From the IMG/VR virus record IMGVR_UViG_3300036832_000815: a stretch of 20,000 bases of DNA. The stretch is one strand, 5' to 3'. Shown piece after piece: positions 3 to 19,959 of the stretch. Numbering within the stretch: the first letter of the stretch is position 1; the number at the start of each line of letters is the position of its first letter. The notes below the pieces were generated by a model. That model worked only from the letters and a program-made list of their open reading frames with translations, was not told where the DNA came from and did no database searches. Position numbers and translations under genes: made by a program. The stretch is from an uncultured virus (IMG/VR IMGVR_UViG_3300036832_000815). Taxonomy: Duplodnaviria > Heunggongvirae > Uroviricota > Caudoviricetes.

Positions 3-3000
3 ACCTGGACCGTTACTAGGGGAGCCGAGGGAGCCGCCCCCTGGGCGCACGTCGCAGGCTGGACGGCCATACCGGTCCTGACCGCCCAGGCGCTCGGTCA
101 GTTCCCCCGCTTCCCGCTGACCAACACCGCGGCCACGGCCGCCACGATCGAGTACCGCACCAACGTCACCGCCGATACCCAGTACCGCTTCACCATCACC
201 GCCGACGGCACCCAGTCCTGGGGCTCGGGCGCGGCGGTGGCCAAGTATGGGCTGGGTGGGGCCGAGCAGAACGTCAGCGGCTACGTCGGCCTACCCATCT
301 TGATGCCCAACGCCTCCAACGTGGCCACCCTGGCGGGGGTGATGTTCAACGGCAGCCAGGGATCCGGCATGGGCCTGGGCTTCGTGTCCGGCAGCCACGC
401 CGCCTTTGTCACCCCATCCGGGTACACCCTCTTCCTCAACAACGTCTCCCTCACCAGCACCCACACGGGCGTCCCAGGGATCAAGATCATCCTGGCCGCC
501 AGCCAGGGCTCCCCTGCCCTTCAGATCAACAACAGCGGTGGCTCGCTGCTGAGCTTCTTCGACCCCAACGGCAACCTGGGCATCAATGGGCCTGGGATTG
601 GGAATCTCTCCTACAACGTGCAGGTGGGGACGGCCAGTACCGGCTCGATCGGCATCGGTGGGGGCTCCATCAGTGAGGCCGGGGGCTACACCAAGTTCTA
701 CCGGGCCAGCGGCAACTTCGACTTCGAGTGGGGCACGGTAGCCTCGACGTTCTTTGGCGGTGGCCTGAACATTGCCGGTTCTGGGACGGCCACGATACCG
801 GCTCTACAAACGCAGGTCGGGAATCCTGCTTATCCAGCCCTGTCGGTTTTTGGGGCTGGTGGCCAAACCGGCAACATCATGCAGGTAGGCACGGCCAGTG
901 GCAATGGCGTCTTTGCAGTGGGACCGAAGCTGGCCCTGACGCTAGGTGCCTTTGATGCTACTACCATCCCACTTACTATCAGTGGTTACAGTGCCCAGAC
1001 CGCTGACTTGTTGGATCTTAAAAACTACGGTGGCACCGTAGTTACATCATTTGATAGTGGTGGTGGTCTTCATTTCAGCACCGATACAGCACTCTATCGT
1101 TCCAGCCCACAACAGCTAACTATCGGCTCTGGCAGCAACTCTTGGGACGTTGGCATACAGAACGGTGCTTCACTGACGTACCACGGCAATGCTATGAGTA
1201 CTGGTTATGCGCTTTCCCAAGATGCTAACAGTACCTATCTGAACGCCACGTCAGGTGGTTATGTCTTTTGCCGGAGTGGCAATGTCAATGACATCTGGAC
1301 CACCAATAACACAGGCATGACGCTCAACCGGCCCATAGGCATTGGTCGCATCGGCCAGCCCATGGCCGGAGTCTGGGTTTGGTCTGCGGCCACGGCTGCC
1401 ACCGACATCCCGTTAGTTCTCCAGGCCGGTAACGGCCAAACCGCCGACACCTTCGAGATCAGATCGTATGGCAACTCGATTATCTCTGGGTTTGACGCAA
1501 CCGGTCGATTGTACCTCGGTCCTACGCCATCCTTCGGTGCAGGTACTGGCCCCATGCTTTTCCTGGGTAATGACACCGCCGATCCCACCGCCAATCCCAC
1601 AGGCGGTGTCATACTCTATTCCTCGGCTGGAGTTCTCAAGGCCCGCACCCCCAGCGGGGCCATCGTCCAGTTAGCCCCCAGCACAGGAGTGGCCGCACCT
1701 CTCGTCTTGACCGCCCCTACGGCCACCACCGTGCCCTTGACCCTGGTCGGAGCAGCCAGCCAGAGCAGCGACCTGCTGGATGTCCAAAGCAGCGGCGGCT
1801 CCACTCTGGCGGCCATCGACGCTACCGGTGCGCTCTATGGCCCCTCGGTGGGTGGTTTCAACGGCAACGACCGGGTCTACTTCCCGGCCGGTAACTACGT
1901 GTCGGTGCCCCAGTACCTCAGCGTGGGCACCTCGGCGGCCACCAACAGCGGCCAACTCACGGTCTATCCCACCACCACCGGGACGACCGCTATCGCCGTC
2001 AGCCTCAAGGCCAGCCAGACCGGTGACGCCCTCACCATCTACAACTCGGGCGGCTCAGCCGTCCTGGGCATCAATGCCACCGGCCAGTTGTACATGGGCT
2101 CTTCTCAGTCCTTCGGCGGTGGCACCGGACCCATGCTGTTCCTCAACAATGACACCGCCGATCCGGGCTCGAACCCGTTCGGCGGGGTCGTCATCTTCTC
2201 GTCGGCGGGGGTACTCAAGGCCCGTACCCCTTCGGGCGCGATCGTGCAGCTAGCCCCTCAACCCGCTCCGGCCGGGGCCGCCTCGGGTGATCTGTCCGGC
2301 ACCTATCCCGGCCCCACCGTAGCCCGGATCAATGGCACCAGCGTCCCGGCCACCCCGACCTCGGGCCAGGTCCTCACGGCCACCTCCGGCACGGCGGCCA
2401 CCTGGCAGACCCCCGCTACAGGTGTCTCCTTCCCCCTGAGCAACACCGCCGCCGCCGCTACCACCATCGAGTACCAGACTCAGGTCACCGCCGACACTTT
2501 CTACCGCTTCACCATCAACGCCCGAGGCGATCACGCCTGGGGCAATGGGGCGGGAGCCACCGACACCAACCTGGCCCGTACCGGCAACGGCATCCTGGCT
2601 CTGACCGCCACGGCCAGAGCCGTCCTCAGCGTGCAGGGTGGCGTCGGCATCACCGAGCAGTCCGCTTCCGCCACCCCGCTGAACATCCAGGCTGCGGCCA
2701 GCCAGACTGGTCCACTCACCTCCTGGGCCAACTCCTCCGGCCAGGTCATCACCTGGATCGACTCCGCTGGCACCTTCAACACCTGGGTGGCGGCCGACAC
2801 CGTGGCCCGCTTCAACCTCAACGCCAACGGGTCCATGTCCTGGGGCCTGGGCAATGCCGGGCGCGACACCGGCCTCTTTCGCCAGGCAGCAGGACTGTTG
2901 GCCGTCGGTGGTAGCGCATCTGCGGCCAACGGCTGGGATGTCGGCAATACCGGCCTGGGTGGCTCCCTGGCCGGTCTGGTGGCTCACGGGATGAGCGGCA

Positions 3001-5975
3001 CCACGGCCTACGCCCTGGCCAGCGATGGTACCCAGACCATCCTCAACGCCCCCACGGCCATCTACTGCAAGATCGGGGCCTCCACCGGCATCTGGAGCGT
3101 CACCTCGGCGGGCACCCTGTTCAACAGCCCCACGGCCTGGGCCACTGCCACCCTCTCCTCCACCGTCCTGGCCGGTATCGGCATCAACGCCAGCAATGTC
3201 GTCGGACTGCAAGTCACCGCCAACTCCACCCAGACCGCCGATCTCCTGCAATGGCGCAGCAGCACCCCCACGGTGCTGGGCGGCGTCAATGGGGCAGGCC
3301 AGTTCTATGTGGGGACCAGCCCCAGCTTCGCAGGTGGCACCGGCCCCACCATCTACCTCGCCCCTAACACCGCGGACCCGTCCACCAATCCCACCACCGG
3401 GATCGTCCTGTACTACTCGGCCAATGCGCTCAAGGCCCGCGACGCCAACGGTGTCATCACCCAGATAGCCCCGGCCCTGACCTCGGGACCAGCCACGGCG
3501 GTGATGGGACCGGATGCTTTCGGGGCGGGCTCCACGGTGGGAGTCAGCACTCTCTTCGCTCGGCAGGATCACCGTCATGGCCTGCCTACCGCTCCAGTGG
3601 TGCCTACAGCCGCCACCACCGTCACAGGACCGGACGCCTTCGGTGCAGCCTCAGCGGTGGGAGTTAGCACCTTCTACGCCCGCCAGGACCACGATCACGG
3701 GCTCCCAGCCGCACCAACGACGAGCTTCCCACTCACTGACAGCACTCAGGCTGCTTCGGCCAACACTGAATACCAGACCCGCGTGTCAGGCGACACCTCA
3801 TATCGCTTCGTCATGTCCACGGGGGGATACTTGCAATGGGGCGTGGGCAGCGCCCCAGCAGACGCTTTCCTGCAACGAACGGGTGTCGGTGCGTTGCAGA
3901 TCAACAGTTCGCTCACGATCTCGACCAGCGCCGCGGGCACCACCCCCTTGTATGTCATCGGCACCTCGGGCCAGACTGCTGATCTGGTCCGCGTCACCAG
4001 CGGCACTGGCGTGCTGACACTTCAGCACACCGCCTCGGGTCAGACCACCATCACCGCCGCCACGGCGGCCGCGATCCCTCTCACACTGAAAGGGGCGGCC
4101 AGCCAGAGCGGGGATTTCCTGCAGATCCAGAACTCCGCTGGCACCATCCTGGCCAACTGGGTCGTTGCTTCGGCCGCTGTGGCCACCCTGAGGCTCAACG
4201 GCGGAGTCAACTCTGATCCCCTGCTGGAGAGCCTGGTCTCGGGCAATGCCTGGCAGCGGTTCCGTATAACAGCCGACGGCACCATGAGATGGGGGCCGGG
4301 CACGGCTGCCCCCGGCGCTTCCGGGACCACCGGCATCACGCTGGACTTCCCCTCGGCCAACTCCTTCAGGATCACCAACGGCACATCGCACGCGGCTTTC
4401 GCCAACACCGGCCTCTCCGGTGACATGGCCCTCTACAACGACGTTGGCTGGCTGTCCATCTCCGGCACCACTGGGGTCAACTACGGGGAAACCGGCGTCC
4501 TCATCGGTGAACTGAATCAGACAGCTTCAGAGTTCAACAACGATCATGTAGCTCTTTCCAGGCGCACCTCCATCGGCGTGGCTCCCGGCAATAACGCTCC
4601 GGCCGGTGTTTATGGATCAGGCACCGGGCCAATGCTGTTCCTGGCTAATGACACCGCTGATCCCACCGCCAATCCCACAGGCGGTGTGATCATTTATTCA
4701 TCAGGCGGAGTCCTAAAGCTGCGCGCCCCCACTACTTCTACTACTTTCTCTACACCCGGTACTGAGCTAGTTCTGGAGCAGACCGGTGATGCCGGGGGTG
4801 CCAGCCGTCTGCACATGCAAAACCGGGGTGGTTTGGCCGGGGCGTTGTTGGAAAGCACCGGCAATCCCATCACCGACCTGGGCTTCAAGGCCGCGGGCCT
4901 CAACCAGGCCCTCGTTCGCCTCGAAGGTCGCGCCGCCTACATCGGTGACGTAGGCAACGGCACCACCAACGGTGACCTCCAGATGCAGCCCAATCAGCAG
5001 CAGGCAGCCTGGTTCGGGATGGTCGGATCCGGCGTTACCGGCCGGTTCAGTTTGGGCGTCAATCCTCAAGCGGCCACCTGGGGCGGCGGCTCGGGCGGGA
5101 TGCTGTACATCGGCAATGACACCGTCGATCCCAGTAGCAGCGTTACCGGCGGAACCCTCCTCTTCTCCTCGGCTGGGGTCCTGAAAGCCAAGACCCCGGA
5201 TGGCACCGTCACCCCCCTCGCGCCCGGAGGAGCCTACGCCCCGGTCAGCAATGGTGTGGCCCCCAACGCCAGTCTTCCGGGGGCGGTGCCGCCTGCGGGG
5301 CTGCTCTGGGTGGACACCAGCGTGGCGGCTGCATCCTTCATCGGGCCACCGGGCCAGCCGGACCTGGGTGTCAACTCGGCTACCCCGGATTTGAATACCT
5401 TCCAGACCAGCGGGAACACAGTCTTCACCGGATCGCCCACCAATGCCCCACCCATACCTCCCGGTGCCTTTATCCTGACCGTGTTCACGATCGGCAATGG
5501 CACTTACATCCAGCAGCGAGCTACGTCTGTCGCCCTGCCGCAATACGTCGCCCATCGGGTGTACTCCGGTGGGGCCTGGGGCACCTGGAGGTCCCCGGCG
5601 GCCGGGCTCGTAACCTCTGTCCTCGGCCCCGCCTCAGTCTTGAACACGGCATCCAACACCGTTTGCACTATCACCTACTCAGTGATCGCTAATCGTCGTT
5701 ACCGTATCACAGCCTTTGGGAGTGGATCTCAGCAGACCAGTACCGGTGAAGTGCGGATATCTCTCAGTCAACCTACCGATACTGCACAGGGTCGTTTTGC
5801 CGATCTCTACAGCATCGTTGCCGGGGCCTTTGTAGCCGCAACCGGTGTCTATGTGTACTCACCCGGTGCCAGTGGATCTCAAACGTGGATCCTGATAGTT
5901 GGTACCACGGCAGGCACGATCAGTTGTGCGGCCAATCAGAGTTCCCTGTTTCTTGAAGATATAGGTACCAGCTAA
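3..5975 (+). CDS. Very large mosaic tail fibre / adhesin protein, 5'-truncated (>1990 aa), with a pyocin-knob-like domain and C-terminal jelly-roll head
   Basis: The frame of ORF 237..5975 is open back to position 3 (TWTVTRGAEGAAPWAH...FPLTNTAATAATIEYRT), so GTG 237 is not the true start. It is G/S/T/A-rich with several internal repeat families and HxH motifs. DLNTFQTSG...NAPP...QQRA...HRVYSGGAWGTWR (5388-5591) resembles a pyocin knob. The protein ends RRYRI...LFLEDIGTS. Confidence 0.85.
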   Translation, partial: TWTVTRGAEGAAPWAHVAGWTAIPVLTAQALGQFPRFPLTNTAATAATIEYRTNVTADTQYRFTITADGTQSWGSGAAVAKYGLGGAEQNVSGYVGLPILMPNASNVATLAGVMFNGSQGSGMGLGFVSGSHAAFVTPSGYTLFLNNVSLTSTHTGVPGIKIILAASQGSPALQINNSGGSLLSFFDPNGNLGINGPGIGNLSYNVQVGTASTGSIGIGGGSISEAGGYTKFYRASGNFDFEWGTVASTFFGGGLNIAGSGTATIPALQTQVGNPAYPALSVFGAGGQTGNIMQVGTASGNGVFAVGPKLALTLGAFDATTIPLTISGYSAQTADLLDLKNYGGTVVTSFDSGGGLHFSTDTALYRSSPQQLTIGSGSNSWDVGIQNGASLTYHGNAMSTGYALSQDANSTYLNATSGGYVFCRSGNVNDIWTTNNTGMTLNRPIGIGRIGQPMAGVWVWSAATAATDIPLVLQAGNGQTADTFEIRSYGNSIISGFDATGRLYLGPTPSFGAGTGPMLFLGNDTADPTANPTGGVILYSSAGVLKARTPSGAIVQLAPSTGVAAPLVLTAPTATTVPLTLVGAASQSSDLLDVQSSGGSTLAAIDATGALYGPSVGGFNGNDRVYFPAGNYVSVPQYLSVGTSAATNSGQLTVYPTTTGTTAIAVSLKASQTGDALTIYNSGGSAVLGINATGQLYMGSSQSFGGGTGPMLFLNNDTADPGSNPFGGVVIFSSAGVLKARTPSGAIVQLAPQPAPAGAASGDLSGTYPGPTVARINGTSVPATPTSGQVLTATSGTAATWQTPATGVSFPLSNTAAAATTIEYQTQVTADTFYRFTINARGDHAWGNGAGATDTNLARTGNGILALTATARAVLSVQGGVGITEQSASATPLNIQAAASQTGPLTSWANSSGQVITWIDSAGTFNTWVAADTVARFNLNANGSMSWGLGNAGRDTGLFRQAAGLLAVGGSASAANGWDVGNTGLGGSLAGLVAHGMSGTTAYALASDGTQTILNAPTAIYCKIGASTGIWSVTSAGTLFNSPTAWATATLSSTVLAGIGINASNVVGLQVTANSTQTADLLQWRSSTPTVLGGVNGAGQFYVGTSPSFAGGTGPTIYLAPNTADPSTNPTTGIVLYYSANALKARDANGVITQIAPALTSGPATAVMGPDAFGAGSTVGVSTLFARQDHRHGLPTAPVVPTAATTVTGPDAFGAASAVGVSTFYARQDHDHGLPAAPTTSFPLTDSTQAASANTEYQTRVSGDTSYRFVMSTGGYLQWGVGSAPADAFLQRTGVGALQINSSLTISTSAAGTTPLYVIGTSGQTADLVRVTSGTGVLTLQHTASGQTTITAATAAAIPLTLKGAASQSGDFLQIQNSAGTILANWVVASAAVATLRLNGGVNSDPLLESLVSGNAWQRFRITADGTMRWGPGTAAPGASGTTGITLDFPSANSFRITNGTSHAAFANTGLSGDMALYNDVGWLSISGTTGVNYGETGVLIGELNQTASEFNNDHVALSRRTSIGVAPGNNAPAGVYGSGTGPMLFLANDTADPTANPTGGVIIYSSGGVLKLRAPTTSTTFSTPGTELVLEQTGDAGGASRLHMQNRGGLAGALLESTGNPITDLGFKAAGLNQALVRLEGRAAYIGDVGNGTTNGDLQMQPNQQQAAWFGMVGSGVTGRFSLGVNPQAATWGGGSGGMLYIGNDTVDPSSSVTGGTLLFSSAGVLKAKTPDGTVTPLAPGGAYAPVSNGVAPNASLPGAVPPAGLLWVDTSVAAASFIGPPGQPDLGVNSATPDLNTFQTSGNTVFTGSPTNAPPIPPGAFILTVFTIGNGTYIQQRATSVALPQYVAHRVYSGGAWGTWRSPAAGLVTSVLGPASVLNTASNTVCTITYSVIANRRYRITAFGSGSQQTSTGEVRISLSQPTDTAQGRFADLYSIVAGAFVAATGVYVYSPGASGSQTWILIVGTTAGTISCAANQSSLFLEDIGTS
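1530..5225 (+). repeat. Five dispersed ~50-aa modules in the fibre (GPMLFLxNDTADPxxNPxGGVxxYSSxGVLKAR)
   Basis: Copies at about 1530-1679, 2109-2258, 3324-3473, 4611-4730 and 5079-5225. Positions 1568-1609 and 4646-4687 match at 41 of 42 nt. Confidence 0.9.
3492..3716 (+). repeat. Tandem 40-aa (120-nt period) repeat with HxH motif
   Basis: ATAVMGPDAFGAGSTVGVSTLFARQDHRHGLPTAP and ATTVTGPDAFGAASAVGVSTFYARQDHDHGLPAAP. Confidence 0.9.
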
Positions 5976-9201: not shown

Positions 9202-9786
9202 TTGAGCTATTTGACCTACGCCTTGTTGACCGAGGACGTGAACTTCGGACGACGGTCCCGTGCCTGCATCAACGAGACCGCCAATAGTCTTAATCAAGAC
9301 AGTAATCCTGCCATAGCAGCGTTAGCTACCGATCTGCTGAAGCAAGAAGGATTGCAGACCGTTGTCATGCTCAACTCCATCTGTGCTGGCCCGAACTTCA
9401 GTGAACTCGTTGACAATGGCGATGGCACCATCGACTCCACCAAGATCTCTGACGAGGACATCAAGGCTCATACCCAGGCCATGTTCACCGAGGTGGCGTG
9501 GATCTTCTATCCCGACAAGATGCCGAGTGGAACACCTCTGCCGCCCTCGGTTGATGCCGTGGATCCCACCAGTGGTCCCAACGGCACTCCTATCACGCTC
9601 ACGGGGGTGTCCCTGAGCGGGACCACCAAGGTCGCCCTGGGCGGAACGACCTGCACCGATCTGAACGTGGATAGCGACACCCAGGTGACGGCCGTGACCC
9701 CGTCCGGTCCCAACAAGGGTGCCCGATCCATCGTGGTGACCGTGGACGGCACCGATGTCTCTGGCCCCAGTTTCCAGGTTACTTAG
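9202..9786 (+). CDS. Fibre-associated small protein (possible assembly chaperone) with C-terminal IPT/TIG Ig-like domain
   Basis: AGGAGG at 9192-9197 precedes the TTG start. PSVDAVDPTSGPNGTPITLTG...VDSDTQVTAVTP is a typical IPT/TIG pattern (9541-9783). The N-terminal half is paralogous to 9819..10154. Confidence 0.7.
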   Translation: MSYLTYALLTEDVNFGRRSRACINETANSLNQDSNPAIAALATDLLKQEGLQTVVMLNSICAGPNFSELVDNGDGTIDSTKISDEDIKAHTQAMFTEVAWIFYPDKMPSGTPLPPSVDAVDPTSGPNGTPITLTGVSLSGTTKVALGGTTCTDLNVDSDTQVTAVTPSGPNKGARSIVVTVDGTDVSGPSFQVT

Positions 9787-11900: not shown

Positions 11901-12836
11901 ATGACCGCCCTGCCCAATCCGGCTCCCGGCAATCCTCCGGCCAACCTGGAGGACTACGTCTACGTCACCCAGCAGGGCAACGACCAGGTGGGCATCATCA
12001 TCAACGTGGGCGGGGTGCCCACCGACCCGGATGGTCAGGTGGTGCTGGTGGCCATGACCCCTGATCAGATCGGATCCAACCCGGTGTTCACCGGCCGCGA
12101 CGCCGTGCGTGAGTACACCGGGGCCTACAGCTACACCTTCCTGTCCGCCGACACCGCCGTCTCCGGTCACTACCACCTGGCCTGGACCTACCAGCTATCC
12201 GGCGTCCCCGACACCTTCCTGACCCCCATCGAGGTCGGTCCCTACAGCCCGGCCTACTTGGCCTTGCCCGCCGATATGCGGGCCATCATCGAACTGGTTT
12301 GGGCCAGGTTCGCGGACGGCTACGACTACGCCTTCGGTGGCCCGCACCTGCAGAGCTACTTCCAGAGCCACTTCGGCCGGGGCCGCATGGCCCAGTTGCT
12401 GCAGATCGTCATCATGACCGTCAACACCTCCATGCAGCCGGTCAGCAGCTACTCCCTGACCGGACCCTCCAGCGATCCCAACGTCCCCCCGATGGGGCCA
12501 GCGTTTCCGGTCCAGCAGTGGAGTGGCCTGCTGATCAGCGGGCTGACCATCGAGGTGTTCAAGCACCTGATGCGCTCCTACGTGGAGGAGCCCATGGCCG
12601 AGAACGTCACCGCGGCGCGTATGACCCGGCGGGATTACCTGGAGCGCTGGGGCGAACTTCTGGCCGTCGAACAGCAGACCTACCAGCAGATGTTCGAGGT
12701 GTTCAAGATCCGCCAGATGTTCGCGGGCCTGCAGCCCAGGGTGATGGTCTCGGGCGGGGTGTTCGGCAACTTTGGTCCCACCCGGCTGGCAGGCAATGCC
12801 GCGGCCCGGCCCCGCTATTGGACAAGGTGGTACTAA
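11901..12836 (+). CDS. Putative head-to-tail adaptor with N-terminal Ig-like domain
   Basis: AGGAG RBS. The N-terminal part is beta-rich (TGAYSYTF...GHYHLAWTY). The helical C-terminal part (VWARFADGYD..GGPHLQSYFQSHFGRGRMAQLL...RRDYLERW) recalls actinomyovirus neck proteins. It lies upstream of the sheath. Confidence 0.6.
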   Translation: MTALPNPAPGNPPANLEDYVYVTQQGNDQVGIIINVGGVPTDPDGQVVLVAMTPDQIGSNPVFTGRDAVREYTGAYSYTFLSADTAVSGHYHLAWTYQLSGVPDTFLTPIEVGPYSPAYLALPADMRAIIELVWARFADGYDYAFGGPHLQSYFQSHFGRGRMAQLLQIVIMTVNTSMQPVSSYSLTGPSSDPNVPPMGPAFPVQQWSGLLISGLTIEVFKHLMRSYVEEPMAENVTAARMTRRDYLERWGELLAVEQQTYQQMFEVFKIRQMFAGLQPRVMVSGGVFGNFGPTRLAGNAAARPRYWTRWY

Positions 12837-13060: not shown

Positions 13061-13317
13061 TGCCCGACAGCAGTGACACCAGCACCTCCAGGCAGGAGAC
13101 GCGCCTGGCCAAATGGTCCGAGGAGCAGACCCAGGCCGCCGCGGCTCATCACGGGGTAGCCCCCGAGGACCTAACCCACGAACACTTCGCGGCCCTGGAC
13201 TGGGCACCGGCCGAGGAGATCCGGGTCGATCACATCAGTGGCCGGGTGGTCCACCTCGACAGCCACGGCAATCGGCGGGTCATGACCATCGAGGAATGGA
13301 ACCGGGAGGAACACTAG
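13060..13317 (+). CDS. Hypothetical 85-aa protein; possibly the separated N-terminal part of the next gene
   Basis: AAGGGG upstream, GC3-rich codons, stop 2 nt before GTG 13320. Confidence 0.6.
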   Translation: MPDSSDTSTSRQETRLAKWSEEQTQAAAAHHGVAPEDLTHEHFAALDWAPAEEIRVDHISGRVVHLDSHGNRRVMTIEEWNREEH

Positions 13318-13319
13318 AG

Positions 13320-13709
13320 GTGGAGACCAACGTCGGTATCGGCATCATGGAGCAGCTTCTGACCGGCACCGCTCAGCCCACTCCCTTCGACGGTGGTCAT
13401 GCCCGCATCGGGGTGGGGGACGGCAACGGCTCGGTGCCCACCGTCCACGCCACCGACACCGCCCTGGTGGCCACCACCAACAAAGCCTTCGTGGGCATGA
13501 ACTCCGGGTTCCCCCAGCAGTCCGGCCAGGTCATGACCTGGCAGGCCACCTTCCCGGCCGGGGTGGGCACCTTCTTCTGGCGGGAGTGGTGCATCGACAA
13601 CGGCAACGGGGGTGGGCCGGGGCAGCTTTTCAACCACGTCGGGATCTCGATGGGCAACAAGACGGCCGGGACCACCTGGACCTTCCAAGTTTCGGTGACG
13701 CAGTCCTGA
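13320..13709 (+). CDS. Small beta-sandwich virion protein (tail-collar/fibre subunit-like), 129 aa
   Basis: Start reassigned from 13113 to GTG 13320 (GGAGG at 13305-13309). Motifs TNVGI...RIGVGDG...TDTAL...WQATFP...WREW..DNG...FNH...K...TWTFQVSVT. Confidence 0.65.
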   Translation: METNVGIGIMEQLLTGTAQPTPFDGGHARIGVGDGNGSVPTVHATDTALVATTNKAFVGMNSGFPQQSGQVMTWQATFPAGVGTFFWREWCIDNGNGGGPGQLFNHVGISMGNKTAGTTWTFQVSVTQS

Positions 13710-14152
13710 TGCCCTTCACCAACTACCTCGATCAGAAGCTGGCCGGGCTGTTCCTGGGCAACACCGCCTACGTCATCCCCGCCAACCTGTACCTGGGCCT
13801 GTCCTCCACGGCTCCCACTCAGACCCAGGTGGGCTCCCCGGTCTGGAACTTCACCGAGCCCGCCGGTAACGCCTACGCACGGGTGACGGTGCCCAACAAC
13901 TCTACCAACTTCGGGCCGATCGGCACCGAGCCCCCGGCCGGGTACACCATCCAGAACAAGCTGGTCATCACCTTCCTGCAAGCCAGCGGACCCTGGCTGG
14001 CGGGAGCCCCGCTGTCCTACTTCGGGCTCTTCGACGCCCTCACCGCAGGCAACCTGTGCCTGTACGGGACCTGCTCCCCGGCCCAGACGGTGGGCTCCGG
14101 GAACATCACGCTTTCATTCGCCGCTGGCGCGCTGAACATCACGCTGAACTAA
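13709..14152 (+). CDS. Small beta-sandwich fibre 'bead' protein (gp80-like), 147 aa
   Basis: Start reassigned to ATG 13709 (TGATG overlap). Motif FTNYL...LYLGLSSTAP...EP.GNAYARV...N...ITF..A...W....YFGLFDALTAGNL..YG...FAAGAL.I. Confidence 0.7.
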   Translation: MPFTNYLDQKLAGLFLGNTAYVIPANLYLGLSSTAPTQTQVGSPVWNFTEPAGNAYARVTVPNNSTNFGPIGTEPPAGYTIQNKLVITFLQASGPWLAGAPLSYFGLFDALTAGNLCLYGTCSPAQTVGSGNITLSFAAGALNITLN

Positions 14153-14162
14153 GGAGCAAACA

Positions 14163-14561
14163 ATGCCCGTAGGAGTCGCCACTCCGACCGCCAACAGCAT
14201 TCTGGCATTGATGCTCAACGGTACCGCTTATGCCGGGAACACCACCCTATACGCCCAGTTGCACATCGGTCAACCAGGACCGGCGGGCACGGCCAATGTA
14301 GCGGGCGAGAACCTGCGGGTTACGTGCGGGACTGCACCGGAGTTCAGCGCTCCTGCCAACGGGGCCTGCACCAACAACAATCCCATTACCTGGTCAGCCG
14401 TTACCACCAACGAGACCTACGCCTTTGTCACGCTGTGGACGGCGCTTACGGGCGGGACCTTTATAGCGTCAGGATCCATCTCTGCCCAGCCGGTAGTAGT
14501 CGGCAACAACTTCTCCATCCCGGCCGGAGGCTTGTCTGTTTCGCTGCCTGTAGCGAGTTAG
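14163..14561 (+). CDS. Second small beta-sandwich fibre 'bead' protein (gp80-like paralogue), 132 aa
   Basis: AAGGAG RBS. LYAQLHIGQPG..GTAN...R...N...ITW...LWTALTGGTF..SG...IPAGGLSV aligns by eye with 13709..14152. Confidence 0.7.
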   Translation: MPVGVATPTANSILALMLNGTAYAGNTTLYAQLHIGQPGPAGTANVAGENLRVTCGTAPEFSAPANGACTNNNPITWSAVTTNETYAFVTLWTALTGGTFIASGSISAQPVVVGNNFSIPAGGLSVSLPVAS

Positions 14562-14564
14562 CCT

Positions 14565-16916
14565 ATGGCGACTTACCGCCTGTTCCCTTCTACCAACGGA
14601 CCAGCTACCGCCACCGCTCGCTCCGGGAACTTCATCTCCGGGGTGACCTGGACCGTCACTCAGGGCGGCATGTGGTTCACGGGCTATTACTGGTGGGTGT
14701 GTGGCTCGGGTCAGACCGTCACCCCGGTCAAGTGCGCCCTGTGGTCCCTGCTGGGCGGCACCAGCGGGCTGGTCATCCCTGGCAGCGTGGTCACCTCCGG
14801 CTCCCTGACCGCCAACGCTTGGAACTACATTCCCCTCCCTAATCCCATCCAGATCGCCATCGGTGACACCCTGGTGGCGGCGATTGGCGTCAACGGGGCC
14901 TACCCCGACACCCCCAACTCCTTCGGGGCCGGGCAGACCTACGCCAACGGCATCACCCAGGGGCCACTGCGAGCCTTCTCCGCCCCCAGCGGCAACTACC
15001 CCAGTAGCTGGGGCAACCCCCAAGGCTGCATGTCCACGGCCGGTAACGACCCTTCCACCACCATCCCGCTGACGGCCCAAGGCACCGACAACCTGTGGGT
15101 CGGGGTCCAGGTCTCCGACACCGCCGCCCCCACCTACACCGGCACCTGGCGGCTGTGGCCCCACATGGCCTCGGCCACCACCTATACCCAGCCCAACACC
15201 ACCGATAATCTCACCGTCGGCACCGAGATCGATATCACCGCCCGAGCCACCGTCAACAACATCTGGTTCTACAGCCCGGCGGGCACGGCCCAGCTTCCCA
15301 CCGAGGTGTCCATCTGGACCATGACCCAGGGCGGTCTGAACGGCACCGCCGTGGTGGACGTGGTCAACCCCACCTGGTCGGGCGCGGCCGGGAGCGGCTG
15401 GATCTCCACTCCCATCCCCGGCAACGTGGTCCTGCCCATCGGCAAGTACCGGGTGTCGGTCTACAACGACACCATCACCCCGGATCAGTGGTCCGCCTTC
15501 TACACCGGCTACTGGGGGATCCCGGCCGGTCAGACCTACCCGGCTCCGGGCCAGAGCGGCATCGTGGCCGGTCCTATGACCGCCCCGGCCACGGCCAACG
15601 CCCAGACCGCCTTCAGCTACAACGGGGCCGGGGCCACCGAGCCCGGCCAGTCGCTGTTCGCCTACGGGCCGCCCAACTCCTTCCCGAACTTCTACATCGG
15701 GGTCAACTCCCCCGGCGGGGCGCTCTTCCAGAACTACTGGGTGGACCTGGAAGTCACCACCGTCATCGTCACCGTCACCGGCACCGCCTCCGTTGCCATA
15801 GCCCCGTTAAACGTCAGGGCAAACGGCATCGTTTCGGTGAGGGGAACGGCCAGCATTGTGGTCGGTCCCGTCAACATTGTGGCCACCGTTACCACCGTCA
15901 TAGGCACGGCCAGTGTCGTCGTTGGCGGTGTGAACGTCGCTGCGAACGGGCGTACCACGGTCCTGGGAACGGGTCGTATAGCGCTGGGCGCGCTGGACCT
16001 GGAGGCTACCGGGCACACCATCGTGGTGGGCCACGCCACCATCGTGGTCGGGCCGATACTGGTGGTGGCAGCCCGCGTCAACAAGGTCTTCACCCGAGGC
16101 GAGTCGGTCAGCCAGTCCGCGGTGACCGGCACGCTGCACAAGGCCGTTCTGGTCTCCAGCACCGGCCCGGTCACGGCCCTGTCCTCGGCCAGCGCGGCGC
16201 TGACCTCGACCCTGTACATCCCGCCCGGCACCGATGTCGGCACCTCGACCGAGACCCAGTCCATCCCCGACATCCGGGCCGCTCTGCTCGACCATTTCCT
16301 GGACACCTACGTGGTGCCCGATGTCAAGTCCTGGGAACTGGAGAACGAGCGCTTCCGCCATGACCAGGCCCTGTACCGCTACGGCGAGTACGCCATCTTC
16401 GTGTCCATGTGGACCATGCAGGACTTCACGGCCGGGCTGGTGAGCCGCTGCTCGACCTGCTTCGCCCCCCAGGGCGCGATCGAGGACACCTGGCAGCAAC
16501 CGGCCTACTTCAAGTGCCCGAACTGCCTGGGCACCAGCTTCGAGGGCGGCTACAAGGCCGTCCTGGTGCGGCCGTCGTTGTGGTCCTGGAATGAGCCGGT
16601 CCTACAGCAGGTGGCCCGCGGCGTCATCAACACCGACGTGGCCACGGTCCAGACCACCAGCGACTTCCGGCTGGAGCCCAAGGACTACATCATCCGGGGC
16701 GACGGGTCGCGCTGGCAGGCCCAGGAGGTCTCGGGTGACCATCTCGACACCGGCTTCGGGACCCAGTCCGGCATCTGGAACGCCACCGCCTTCATCTACA
16801 ACAACGTCACCCGAGAGGACGAGTCCTCCCCCATTTACCTGCTGCCTATCACCGAGGATTACATCCAGAAGCACATCCCGCAGTACTACTCCCGTCAGCC
16901 CGTAGGAGACTTCTGA
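14565..16916 (+). CDS. Fusion protein: 2x DUF4082-like domain, 20-23-aa beta-repeat stalk, CxxC/CxxC neck (head-closure/stopper-like) domain
   Basis: Two Trp/Tyr-rich beta domains, the second ending NYWVDLEV (about 15755). GTASxxVGxxNVxAxG repeats at about 15770-16200. C-terminal ERFRHDQALYRYGEY...RCSTC (16449-16460)...KCPNCLGTSFEGGY (16515-16526). Confidence 0.7.
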   Translation: MATYRLFPSTNGPATATARSGNFISGVTWTVTQGGMWFTGYYWWVCGSGQTVTPVKCALWSLLGGTSGLVIPGSVVTSGSLTANAWNYIPLPNPIQIAIGDTLVAAIGVNGAYPDTPNSFGAGQTYANGITQGPLRAFSAPSGNYPSSWGNPQGCMSTAGNDPSTTIPLTAQGTDNLWVGVQVSDTAAPTYTGTWRLWPHMASATTYTQPNTTDNLTVGTEIDITARATVNNIWFYSPAGTAQLPTEVSIWTMTQGGLNGTAVVDVVNPTWSGAAGSGWISTPIPGNVVLPIGKYRVSVYNDTITPDQWSAFYTGYWGIPAGQTYPAPGQSGIVAGPMTAPATANAQTAFSYNGAGATEPGQSLFAYGPPNSFPNFYIGVNSPGGALFQNYWVDLEVTTVIVTVTGTASVAIAPLNVRANGIVSVRGTASIVVGPVNIVATVTTVIGTASVVVGGVNVAANGRTTVLGTGRIALGALDLEATGHTIVVGHATIVVGPILVVAARVNKVFTRGESVSQSAVTGTLHKAVLVSSTGPVTALSSASAALTSTLYIPPGTDVGTSTETQSIPDIRAALLDHFLDTYVVPDVKSWELENERFRHDQALYRYGEYAIFVSMWTMQDFTAGLVSRCSTCFAPQGAIEDTWQQPAYFKCPNCLGTSFEGGYKAVLVRPSLWSWNEPVLQQVARGVINTDVATVQTTSDFRLEPKDYIIRGDGSRWQAQEVSGDHLDTGFGTQSGIWNATAFIYNNVTREDESSPIYLLPITEDYIQKHIPQYYSRQPVGDF

Positions 16917-17680
16917 TGCCCCTCGGCACCCGCGCCCCGGATCGAGCCATCATGGTCATCGACGGGCTCAGCGTGGCCGACGCCAAGTGGTTGTCCTCGA
17001 TCGCCGTCATCTACGCCCGTAGGCATGCCCCCAAGCTGACCGGGATCTCGGCGTCGAGGATCATGCCGCTCTACGGCCGGGAGCATTTCGGCCTGCGCTG
17101 GGCCGACGATAGGGTGTGGTTCCAGAACGCCGGGGTGAACCCCTTCGTCATGCGCTCCCTGGCCGGGAAGACTATCCCCATGTGGATCGATGATCCGACC
17201 GGCACCGAGCGCCAGAAGAACCCCAATGCCAAGGTGCGGGTCACCGAGAGTCAAAAGATCCAGGTGCTGATCTTTCGTCGGGTGGGCAGGCGAGGAGACA
17301 AGAAGACCGTCACCCGGCGCACGGGTGGCCAGGTCCAGAAGATCGAGGTGCCCAACTGGAACTTTCCCGGCGCGCCCGGCCGCATCACTATGCGGGAGGC
17401 GGCCCAGCCTCATACCACGCCGGGTCGGGTTGGTGGCCGTATCGCCAAAGGCAACATCGGGTTGCGCTGGTACTTCCCTGGGCTGAGCCCCCGCAACTTC
17501 ATCCAGCACGGGTTGGTCCAGGCATGCAATGCAGCCAACGTCATCCCCGGTCCTATCCATATCGGCTACAACTTCTACTCGGCCCGTGCTTCACTTGGTG
17601 ACAAGATCCCTGCTTATCCCCGGCAACCCATGGCCGAACGGATGAGTAAGATGGCGAAAAGAGGTATGCAATCTACTTAG
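16916..17680 (+). CDS. Basic virion morphogenesis protein (putative neck/tail-completion, HK97 gp10-like position)
   Basis: TGATG overlap. R/K-rich, with ARRHAPKLTG...WFQNAGVNPFVM...RWYFPGLSPRNFI. Sits between the stopper-like and terminator-like genes. Confidence 0.55.
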   Translation: MPLGTRAPDRAIMVIDGLSVADAKWLSSIAVIYARRHAPKLTGISASRIMPLYGREHFGLRWADDRVWFQNAGVNPFVMRSLAGKTIPMWIDDPTGTERQKNPNAKVRVTESQKIQVLIFRRVGRRGDKKTVTRRTGGQVQKIEVPNWNFPGAPGRITMREAAQPHTTPGRVGGRIAKGNIGLRWYFPGLSPRNFIQHGLVQACNAANVIPGPIHIGYNFYSARASLGDKIPAYPRQPMAERMSKMAKRGMQST

Positions 17681-17685
17681 TTCAG

Positions 17686-18351
17686 TTGATGCATGTCATC
17701 ACTTCAGGCTTGAAGAGCGTTTTCCATGGCGACTATGTGTCCATGGACGACCAGCCGGACTTCGCCGGTCTGCACGTCTCCATCGAGTACCCGCTCACTC
17801 CTCAGGACTACCCCGGCGTGTGGGTGGACTTCGAGCCCGAGGGGGAGCTTTCCCGTGGCGGCATCGATGACATCAACACCTACCTGCCGAATGGGGATAC
17901 GTCCCTGACCCCGTTGTACCTGTGGCGTGCCCAGGGTTGGGCCACCTACACCCTGGCCACTCTGACCTCCATGCAACGGGCGCGCCTGCACGATGAGATC
18001 GTGCGGGTGTTCGCCTTCGGCTCCGACCCCACCGTGGCGGCCTTCCGGGACACCATCGAGACCAACGACTACCTGGCCATGAACATGGACTTCGACCGCA
18101 TCGCGGAGCGAGGAGCCTCGGCCACGCCGGGTACGCCCTGGGGGACAGAAGAGATCATCTACGAGACGACATTGGCCATGCAATGCGTGATCGAGTTCTA
18201 CTCCACAGCGAATAAGGACAAGCTCTATCCGCTGTCCGCCATTCAGATTTACTCCACGCCTAAGGATTTGAATACTTGGACCGAAACCAGCCTCGATGCT
18301 AATGGGACATCCATCGGACCAGGCACACCGCCATCAGATGGTTGGCAGTAG
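17686..18351 (+). CDS. Putative tail terminator (start uncertain: 17671, 17686 or 17689)
   Basis: Acidic ~220-aa protein with SIEYP...YPGVWVDF and TLATLTSMQRARLHDEI motifs, immediately upstream of the sheath. Confidence 0.6.
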   Translation: MMHVITSGLKSVFHGDYVSMDDQPDFAGLHVSIEYPLTPQDYPGVWVDFEPEGELSRGGIDDINTYLPNGDTSLTPLYLWRAQGWATYTLATLTSMQRARLHDEIVRVFAFGSDPTVAAFRDTIETNDYLAMNMDFDRIAERGASATPGTPWGTEEIIYETTLAMQCVIEFYSTANKDKLYPLSAIQIYSTPKDLNTWTETSLDANGTSIGPGTPPSDGWQ

Positions 18352-18483: not shown

Positions 18484-19959
18484 GTGTCCATCATTGATTT
18501 CACGCAGTACCAGCCTCCCGATGTTTATATCGAGGCTTTGGCGGCCCCACTTGTCGGGGTCACTGGCATCGCTCCTGATGTCATCGGGATTGTTGGTCCA
18601 TCCCTCGGTTACAAGACCACAACGGAGAGCTATGTACTGACCGATACCATCCCGGTCACGCTGAATCAGTTTGGAGCTAATCCAGCCAGTGTGAGCATCA
18701 CCGATGTATCCGGGAATGCATTCCTTCTGACCGACTGGGTCACCACTGTTTTGCACGGTTCAACCCCGGCTCAGAACCAGGTCACGGTGGCTCGGTCCCC
18801 CACCTCGAATATCATCAGCGGCCAGGTGGTCTACATCACCTATCAGTACACCGATGGGAACTACTACCTCCCGGCCACCTATACCGACTACCCCTCGGTG
18901 AAGCGGGACTGGGGCGTCCCGCTCGACCTGACCACCAACGCCATCCTGTCCCCGCTGTCCCTGGCGGCTCAGTTGGCCTTCATCAACGGGGCCAATACCA
19001 TCATCATCTGCCCCACCCAGGACACCGGAGGCGTGGTCACCCGCACCGGCCTGCAAGAGGCGTACCAGACCATGGCCTCCATCGTCCCGCTGGACATCAT
19101 CGTCCCGCTGCCGGTGGGCATCAGTGGCACCTCGGCGCTGCCCGGTGACACCATCAACGTCGGCCTGGACCTGGCCTCCTTCCTGAACCAGCAGGCCCAG
19201 GTGGGCATCTTCGGAGTGGGCCTGGTGGGCTACGACGCGGCCAACACGGTTCCGCCCGACACCATCGCCAGCGGCATCTCCAGCTACCGCATCCAGGAAC
19301 ACTGGCCAAATCAGATGAACTACTTCAACGGCACCAACAACGCCTCGTTCATCATCTCCGGTTACTACCTGGCCGCGGCCTGGGCCGGGGTGCTGGCCTC
19401 CCTGCAGCGCCAGGTGCCGCTGACCAAGAAGAACGTCTCGGGCCTGTCGGGCATCCCCAACTCGGTGTTCACCACCATGACCATGGCCTACAAGAACCAG
19501 CTATCGGCGGCCGGGGTAGCCGTCACCGAGCAGGTGACCGGCGGGGGTCTGCAGATGCGCCACTCGGTCACCACCTCCACGGTGGCCATCACCAGCCGAG
19601 AGCTATCCATCATCCGGGCGGGCGACGGCATGATCGAGATGATCGAGAACACCCTGGTGAACTCCGGTCTCATCGGCAGTGCCTTCACCCCGACCACCCT
19701 GGCCAACGTCAAGAGCCTGGTCCAGGGAGCCCTGGAGGCCCTGCTCAACCAGGGGCTGATCGTGGGCTACACCGGGCTCGGAGTCCAGCAGCAGGCCACC
19801 AACCCTCTCGTCGTCCTGGTGCAGTTCCAGTACCAGCCCGCTTACCCCCTCAACTACATCGTCGTCCAGTACTCGATCGACACCACCACCGGCTCGGTCT
19901 CGACCGTCACCACGGCCCCCGATCCCACGGGTGGCTCCACCGGCAACACCGGCACCTAG
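18484..19959 (+). CDS. Contractile tail sheath protein
   Basis: N-terminal YQPPDVYIE (PGVYxE-type), YYLAAAWAG...PLTKK, ELSIIRAGD and C-terminal FQYQPAYPLNYIVV are sheath hallmarks; 491 aa. Confidence 0.9.
   Translation: MSIIDFTQYQPPDVYIEALAAPLVGVTGIAPDVIGIVGPSLGYKTTTESYVLTDTIPVTLNQFGANPASVSITDVSGNAFLLTDWVTTVLHGSTPAQNQVTVARSPTSNIISGQVVYITYQYTDGNYYLPATYTDYPSVKRDWGVPLDLTTNAILSPLSLAAQLAFINGANTIIICPTQDTGGVVTRTGLQEAYQTMASIVPLDIIVPLPVGISGTSALPGDTINVGLDLASFLNQQAQVGIFGVGLVGYDAANTVPPDTIASGISSYRIQEHWPNQMNYFNGTNNASFIISGYYLAAAWAGVLASLQRQVPLTKKNVSGLSGIPNSVFTTMTMAYKNQLSAAGVAVTEQVTGGGLQMRHSVTTSTVAITSRELSIIRAGDGMIEMIENTLVNSGLIGSAFTPTTLANVKSLVQGALEALLNQGLIVGYTGLGVQQQATNPLVVLVQFQYQPAYPLNYIVVQYSIDTTTGSVSTVTTAPDPTGGSTGNTGT

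Follow-up and report, generated by a model that had tools for sequence, protein, structure and literature searches.

A phage neck-stopper domain fused to a putative lectin-like arm in an uncultured soil caudovirus

The whiskers of phage T4 attach to the gp13/gp14 neck. For the stopper ring of the neck itself, the closest described system is that of Staphylococcus phage 812 (gp97; entries 8q01, 8qkh and 8qgr), where according to the published account (PMC12886913) the stopper is a hexamer with a β-barrel core, a zinc-bound tetra-cysteine loop (in the crystal structure a zinc atom lies among the four cysteines) and a gating hairpin; the tail terminator pushes the cysteine loop outwards, whereupon the gate opens, and the N-terminus and the C-terminus of the stopper contact outer “stopper decoration” proteins, which in turn touch density putatively assigned to neck whiskers. 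Other arrangements are reported for the myophage A-1(L), in which the separate neck fibres gp82, gp81 and gp80 are anchored on the neck protein gp5 (PMC10966104), for the podophage A1002, in which Gp80-type chain-like fibres dock on a dedicated domain (PMC13730344), and for Goslar, whose stopper has a separate N-terminal domain and a symmetry switch (PMC13742148); phage Jabs, which according to a preprint has no stopper, is irrelevant to the comparison. The present work concerns a single gene (14565–16916, + strand) in a stretch of 20,000 nucleotides from an uncultured virus of the Caudoviricetes (IMG/VR record IMGVR_UViG_3300036832_000815; this whole stretch is referred to below as the window), the 783-residue product of which joins two lectin-like head domains, a repeat stalk and a linker to a C-terminal neck stopper domain. 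This identification of the parts is very probably correct; what the extension does on the virion calls for more caution, and is weighed further below.

The C-terminal domain belongs among the stoppers of the Bxz1 gp120 family, and its four-cysteine loop is conserved. At the level of sequence, PHROGs yields phrog_2806, a family of unknown function, over residues 600–714 (E 3.7e-10), and a tblastn search of 50,697 phage records returns only nine, all of them aligning at about residues 601–769 with 22–41% identity and including E3 gp108 and Pupper gp110 (197 residues each), which are encoded a few genes ahead of the sheath. When a profile of the family is aligned with Bxz1 gp120 (198 residues) using hhalign, the match scores 99.2% (E 1.1e-19) over 170 columns, with both cysteine pairs aligned. 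These three phage proteins are thus homologues of residues ~590–770, share both cysteine pairs and occupy the same place between neck and sheath, but they stand alone, are 25–28% identical to the window protein and carry no arm; an earlier note on this DNA, made from the letters alone, had pointed to just such a stand-alone gene in Bxz1-like myoviruses, and in this it was right. When residues 570–783 are used in an exhaustive phmmer search of 1.84 billion representatives, 175 proteins match at E ≤ 1e-3, 76 of them at E ≤ 1e-30. When the PDB was searched by sequence, using the C-terminal domain, its 79-row profile and two of the neighbouring proteins as queries, nothing better than chance-level matches came up (E 0.1–2).

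An AlphaFold2 model of the domain, built from a 79-row alignment that included stand-alone members, has a mean predicted local distance difference test score (pLDDT) of 91.0 and a predicted template-modelling score (pTM) of 0.84, and a Foldseek search with it against the PDB places two phage 812 neck entries on top (8q01_S at E 4.5e-5, the other at E 1.1e-4), behind which come neck entries of T1, P1, NF5, FCWL1, Douge, T4, SaPI1, XM1, Pam3, lambda and SPP1; the list also holds an entry titled “Stopper protein of phage 812”. Superposition using VIA-align gives Z 11.3 for 8q01_S (root-mean-square deviation 4.3, 149 residues aligned), Z 8.4 for 8qgr, the entry with the stopper in its title, Z 8.7–8.8 for the lambda neck chains (114 residues) and Z 6.2 for the SPP1 connector chain (109 residues); the three phage 812 rows are taken to represent one protein, because their residue ranges and their 15% identity agree. 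An unbiased scan covering 48,161 representative chains again puts 8q01_S first (Z 11.3), and all of the 19 best rows (Z 11.3–7.3) are, by entry title, neck or connector-type proteins of phages, gene transfer agents, SaPI or PBSX. The stopper-like neck protein proposed in the earlier note is thereby borne out, the best match being the phage 812 stopper and the four-cysteine loop being present.

Within this domain, C629 is invariant and C632, C651 and C654 are each at least 90% conserved across 79 family members, and in 10 close relatives none of the four varies. The first pair has the form C-S-T-C, i.e. C-x-x-C, and not the C-P-C seen in 812 gp97-type stoppers. A local hhalign alignment puts the cysteines on the C-P-C...C-P-R-C of a 292-residue protein of phage K, the gene for which adjoins a putative adaptor gene, in a comparable gene order where the presumed stopper lies a few genes ahead of the sheath; the match of the family profile to this protein is not significant (1%). 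The loop with two C-x-x-C pairs is also conserved in Bxz1 (L005 6903–7499), E3, Pupper and the 175 metagenomic representatives. According to the 812 paper (PMC12886913), the tetra-cysteine pattern is not conserved in phage groups outside the Herelleviridae; the Bxz1/E3-like lineage has a related four-cysteine stopper loop.

The fusion of this domain to its long N-terminal extension is an intact gene and not an artefact of assembly or gene calling. The reading frame contains zero internal stops, and it opens stop-to-stop at 14562, a single codon separating the in-frame stop upstream from ATG 14565, so that this ATG is the sole possible start. The TAG of the upstream gene ends 3 nucleotides ahead of it, and at the other end the TGA overlaps the ATG of the downstream gene (TGATG), which is preceded by GGAG. 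When positions 16040–16460 were read by eye, no Shine-Dalgarno-like motif with an in-frame start was seen near the stopper junction, which agrees with the single open reading frame (ORF), free of stops and of any obvious internal ribosome-binding site, described in the earlier note. Five relatives on other contigs span the junction and cover 99–100% of the protein, three of them of 783 residues (80–85% identity), one of 977 (61%) and one of 1359 (52%). A second, separately assembled soil-metagenome contig contains 14000–17800 in one piece with 0 differences and a mean word depth of 43.8; the sequencing run behind it may be the source sample, in which case it represents a check of the assembler, not of the biology, and does not constitute independent data. 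The assembly chimera about which concern had been expressed therefore finds neither a stop nor a misassembly to rest on, given these five relatives and the identical second contig.

Turning to the extension, its first 398 residues form the heads. Folded together with 61 relatives, residues 1–405 yield an all-β model of two domains (pLDDT 94.7, pTM 0.91). In VIA superpositions the first of these is closest to PHR domains (Z 11.2–11.6, with 3gbw at 11.6), a domain of the central fibre gp20 of mycobacteriophage Douge (Z 10.9) and a phi812 baseplate chain (Z 10.8), and the second to Cwp84 entries (4ci7_B, compared with model residues 190–400, and 4d59_A; Z 11.1–11.8), the title of which names a lectin-like domain, and to a capsid chain of cyanophage A4 (Z 9.9). 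Entries for carbohydrate esterase and polyvinyl-alcohol esterase reach Z 8–9.6 against the heads, and fucose-binding modules, discoidin and neuropilin b domains Z 5–6. Foldseek scores for the whole head model are weak, as may be expected of a query with two domains, and matches in BFVD at E ≤ 1e-3 are mostly to actinophage “minor tail proteins”, including F5/8 type C and ConA-like ones, all with low TM-scores. The two halves are weakly alike (27% identity over 108 residues, pairwise E 0.001), and nowhere else in the window is there a paralogue of the head module. DUF4082 (PF13313) is matched by 11 of the 62 aligned relatives, which are 37–52% identical; among nine such relatives examined, eight reach 28.4 bits, the matches fall in either half, and four of the nine have two matching stretches. 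To speak of two DUF4082-like domains, as the earlier note did, is consequently fair wording as regards the two sandwiches and the relatives that match the family, but in the strict Pfam sense the window protein itself is not a member.

Behind the heads, a stalk of repeats is evident from BLOSUM autocorrelation, which peaks at shifts of 21 and 41 residues; Tandem Repeats Finder detects no array over the stalk at the DNA level. At the border between heads and stalk there is a short tandem repeat of CACCGT (4.8 copies, window 15758–15786), a 20-nucleotide copy of which finds a match at another site within the same assembled contig. A trimer prediction using three copies of residues 396–575 gave a score of 0.00 with an uncertain fold of the partners, and speaks neither for nor against any oligomeric state. 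The linker that follows is common, at 32–63% identity, to all relatives that align over 62–63 of its residues, even where the heads are unrelated, while P0005 aligns over only 5 linker residues.

Comparison within the clade makes the modular build of these proteins apparent. P0008 (759 residues) has residues 503–780 alone in common with the window protein, at 67% identity; P0005 has two double-head modules ahead of its stalk; and P0087, an ORF of 364 residues in L003 (a viral contig of 157 kilobases), consists of four repeats, the linker and the stopper (86% identical), with no heads. Stalk-type repeats are shared by P0087, P0005 and P0006; P0008, P0009 and P0011 have none. Nor does identity to the window protein run evenly along the chain: in P0002 the heads are 88–96% identical as against 78% for the stopper, and in P0005 49–58% as against 81%, a mosaic that fits recombination at the module borders.

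How common such extensions are was surveyed among 147 newly listed representatives and nine close relatives added by hand (156 rows), from which the 32 rows with fewer than 140 domain residues were dropped to leave 124, an extension being counted where there were at least 100 extra residues beyond the stopper domain. On this basis 83 rows are stand-alone, 34 are extended N-terminally (326–1524 residues in total) and seven C-terminally; if the six hand-added relatives absent from the representative list are left out, the share of N-terminal extensions becomes 28/118. Compared by BLASTP (E ≤ 1e-5, at least 60 residues), the 34 extensions group into 16 clusters that share no similarity with one another, and Pfam matches among the extensions amount to DUF4434 once, a weak MG2 once, collagen repeats once (in a C-terminal tail) and almost nothing else. 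On a FastTree tree of the domain, 17 changes are required to account for the extended state, of which at least 11 are imposed by branches with good support, compared with a mean of 30.1 when states are shuffled (0/500 shuffles were as low as 17), and in the window's own clade 10/10 rows are N-terminally extended. N-terminal extension is therefore a recurrent, modular trait of the family. Most homologues do not already have this architecture, a point on which the earlier note had left its interpretation exposed; the fusion is nonetheless less exceptional than that note suggested. DUF4082-like heads are present in P0001–P0006 only (P0001 being the window protein), but the principle of fusion recurs elsewhere in the family.

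Some particular cases from the survey may be recorded here. C-terminal extensions of 112–159 residues, with no N-terminal ones, are found in P0093, P0115, P0136, P0145, P0159, P0173 and P0196, while P0114 (1145 residues) is extended at both ends and has collagen-like repeats behind its stopper domain. Among 48 related viral loci of IMG/VR, located by a scan with a 12-row alignment, the stopper ORF measures 198–259 residues in 34 and 291–518 in 13, and is interrupted in one, L016 (6899–7012), where the frame closes after 37 codons though tblastn aligns residues 1–192; a frameshift or a stop may account for this, or else the ORF script may have been offset in its frame.

The reading that we favour, with a probability of roughly 0.6, is that of a stopper whose N-terminal extension (linker, β-repeat stalk and two DUF4082-type lectin-like domains) makes up neck arms. 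The source phage would be large and contractile-tailed, a distant relative of Bxz1, E3 and Pupper from a soil metagenome. By homology with the 812 stopper, its C-terminal domain would form a six-membered ring beneath the adaptor and hold the DNA until the tail docks, at which point the tail terminator would push against a cysteine loop stiffened by zinc. The 569-residue extension would project outwards, giving covalently anchored neck arms with six chains per virion; outward arms are proposed because the N-terminus of the 812 stopper lies outside the neck, where the decoration proteins touch the whiskers. The lectin-like tips may bind glycans of the host surface or of the surrounding matrix and so aid a reversible first contact, and the arm would be a swappable module, relatives keeping stopper and linker but carrying other heads, more heads or none. 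It is thus the binding of sugars, the number of arms and the location of the arm in the virion that we infer in this picture.

Several observations weigh against it. Among the neck matches, entry titles name the stopper subunit only for 8qgr and the T1 and R4C entries, and at the residue level the correspondence between the cysteine loop and its phage 812 counterpart is based on an insignificant local alignment together with the overall superposition. The 783-residue protein has no Pfam match at E ≤ 1 and so stays below the gathering threshold of DUF4082 (28.4 bits), and folds of the lectin-like kind occur also in non-binding roles, as in PHR domains and capsid proteins. Stalk and linker yielded no confident structure, and the headless P0087 retains its stalk, which must therefore have some role of its own beyond that of an adhesin arm. 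As to the survey, the tree was made with FastTree only and its root is arbitrary, and some members counted as stand-alone may owe this to starts called wrongly or to metagenomic genes that were truncated.

Of the other explanations, the main rival holds that the extension is chiefly structural, with stalk and linker serving as a collar or docking platform for Gp80-like bead-chain fibres and the heads being optional. Directly upstream of the stopper gene, both in the window and in L003, there are two genes of the PF23140 Gp80-like type, and the stalk without heads of the L003 stopper keeps this rival alive; described systems also offer precedents, namely the dedicated docking domain of A1002, the neck protein of A-1(L) that anchors separate fibres, and phage 812, which needs decoration proteins at the site of its stopper. 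However, Gp80-like genes were found in only one close relative among the 48 loci, so that no association with extended stoppers can be assessed; P0008, P0009 and P0011 have large N-terminal parts without any repeats; and the heads, being hypervariable and mosaic, have more the look of modules for host recognition. On balance we regard a collar or platform as unlikely.

There are also explanations under which few arms, or none, would remain on the ring, either because the arm is cleaved off during assembly or because an internal start yields a stand-alone stopper. The Ser/Thr/Ala-rich linker could be prone to cleavage (or simply flexible), most members of the family function as proteins of ~220–250 residues, and in-frame GTG codons lie at residues 583–584; but no protease site is known at the linker, which is kept in all nine close relatives (allowing for the short alignment of P0005), and the in-frame starts at the junction lack, by eye, the Shine-Dalgarno-like motif seen as AAGGAG or GGAG ahead of neighbouring genes, making a precursor or dual product improbable. 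That two adjacent genes were joined through an error of sequencing, assembly or gene calling might be supposed from the majority status of stand-alone stoppers and from relatives in which the upstream slot is often a separate large gene. Against it stand the five junction-spanning relatives, at 52–85% identity, the identical second assembly, and the folding of both halves with pLDDT above 90, and it can hardly be entertained.

The features discussed, together with those of the neighbouring genes, are collected in Table 1.

Table 1 Coordinates of the stopper gene, its parts and its neighbours in the window
Feature	Position	Strand	Evidence
Bxz1 gp119 / E3 gp107 homologue (311 aa)	11901..12836	+	BLASTP E 1.6e-29 to Bxz1 gp119; tblastn E3, Pupper; phrog_2791
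Protein with tail-collar-fibre N-terminal motif	13113..13709	+	PF12571 E 7.4e-5; phrog_23653 E 2.8e-22
Gp80-like chain-fibre protein, paralogue 1	13586..14152	+	PF23140 E 2.6e-24, aa 44–186
Gp80-like chain-fibre protein, paralogue 2, directly upstream of stopper gene	14163..14561	+	PF23140 E 8.1e-19
Whole gene P0001, 783 aa: lectin-like heads, repeat stalk, linker, neck stopper	14565..16916	+	ORF, full-length relatives
Head domain 1, aa 1–~190, β-sandwich, DUF4082-like	14565..15134	+	Model, VIA, DUF4082 in relatives
Head domain 2, aa ~191–398, β-sandwich, lectin-like	15135..15758	+	VIA
Stalk, five ~21-aa repeats, aa 402–506, motif roughly xVxGxAxIxVGPxNIxAxGxx	15768..16082	+	Autocorrelation
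Ser/Thr/Ala-rich linker, 63 aa, aa 507–569	16083..16271	+	Sequence, relatives
Neck stopper domain, aa 570–783	16272..16913	+	Model pLDDT 91, Foldseek, VIA, phrog_2806, Bxz1 gp120 hhalign
Tetra-cysteine loop C629-x2-C632...C651-x2-C654, putative zinc site	16449..16526	+	Conservation, 812 analogy
Neck-region gene, Bxz1 gp122 / Pupper gp111 homologue	16916..17680	+	Start overlaps stopper's stop codon
Bxz1 gp123 / E3 gp110 homologue (221 aa)	17686..18351	+	Similarity
Tail sheath	18484..19959	+	phrog_2839 E 1.7e-75; similar to Bxz1, E3 sheath

Phage structural genes lie in a row on the + strand of the window, the last being that for the tail sheath; the stopper gene sits two genes before the end of this row, in an order that matches gp119, gp120, gp122, gp123 and the sheath gp124 of Bxz1 and is also syntenic with E3 gp107–111 and with Pupper. 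In Bxz1 and E3 the gp119/gp107-like gene directly precedes the stand-alone stopper, Pupper having one extra gene between the two; from its position, the gp119-like product may be the adaptor. In the window, three fibre-like genes absent from Bxz1 and E3 (one of tail-collar-fibre and two of Gp80 type) are interposed at this point. The first two of these overlap by 124 nucleotides, and as the Gp80 match of the second starts at residue 44, its true start probably lies downstream of the listed GTG; AAGGAG precedes the ATG of the other Gp80-like paralogue. In L003 the 364-residue stopper gene likewise comes directly after two Gp80-like genes, and L003 (there counted as L007) is the single close relative with such genes among the 211 upstream ORFs of the 48 loci. 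For the 221-residue product the nearest named clusters of Atlas are Phage_tail_terminator_9 and E217_gp29, at 0.86–0.89 and thus below the 0.9 mark, so that its being the tail terminator is no more than a lead; beyond such sub-threshold leads, Atlas returned only unnamed viral clusters for the 311- and 221-residue neighbours.

A BLASTP comparison of residues 1–569 with the 211 upstream ORFs found no separately encoded homologous arm; matches of the A2 profile upstream, considered as a possible separate arm gene, were rejected, since they lay in columns of the profile not covered by the window protein. The gene upstream of stand-alone stoppers is highly variable (L011 4696–6927, L022 4656–6905, L024 5272–6888 and L033 5695–6900), the slot holding proteins such as a GDSL-lipase-like one, a methyltransferase combined with glycosyltransferase and TPR, and a GT4 glycosyltransferase, and an insertion hot-spot between the adaptor-like and stopper genes is suggested. 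Elsewhere in the window, a giant ORF of at least 1990 residues (3–5975) runs off the 5′ end with only a short match to phrog_19576; it probably encodes a large fibre or baseplate protein, and its counterpart in L003 (1556 residues) contains a CBM_4_9 carbohydrate-binding domain. At 9202–9786, inside the structural block, a 194-residue protein is encoded whose IPT/TIG immunoglobulin-like domain matches at E 6e-10.

Set against the described systems, the window protein has its best structural match in the phage 812 stopper, and in both a loop of four cysteines lies close to where the barrel starts; the window protein differs in showing no significant sequence similarity, in the form of its first cysteine pair (C-P-C in the Herelleviridae) and in that the arm is part of the stopper chain itself, whereas the whiskers of 812 are linked through separate decoration proteins (PMC12886913). 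In A-1(L), too, neck fibres are encoded beside neck genes, but these are separate trimers docked on the neck ring (PMC10966104), while here the appendage belongs to the same polypeptide as the ring subunit, so that the number of chains would be fixed by the ring. By analogy, the window arm and the known neck fibres likely share a role in early host contact or sensing. A stopper fold inside a longer chain is found also in the phiKZ neck chain 9xps_B (437 residues), Goslar gp50 and the P1 connector chain 9ums_B, where the extra parts build the neck itself and neither lectin-type heads nor a repeat stalk have been described. Finally, DUF4082 is matched by relatives of the head module, and a similar fold is seen among the BFVD models of actinophage “minor tail proteins”, but those proteins are of the tail tip or cellular, whereas the window heads ride on a neck ring protein. 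A search of the open-access literature found neither a stopper to which a fibre or lectin-type arm is fused nor any survey of extensions of this kind. Separate neck fibres and stoppers with neck-building domains are already known; a stopper carrying a lectin-type arm would, as far as that literature goes, be new.

If the ring subunit is itself the fibre, the number of arms would be set by the symmetry of the ring and a docking protein would be needless, and the gene would offer a simple genetic handle on a second site of host interaction. It is a more speculative and rather doubtful step to suppose that the N-terminus of the stopper family serves generally as a hot-swappable display site, providing a second, neck-borne locus of host recognition or glycan binding in a widespread group of large actinophage-like myoviruses of soil; were this so, the copy number of the display site would be hard-wired by the stopper ring, its modules would recombine independently of the baseplate fibres, and binding at a surface might be coupled through the neck to the cysteine-loop gate that governs the retention of DNA. 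With many unrelated extensions in about a quarter of the family, the stopper may represent an overlooked variable locus in large soil myoviruses.

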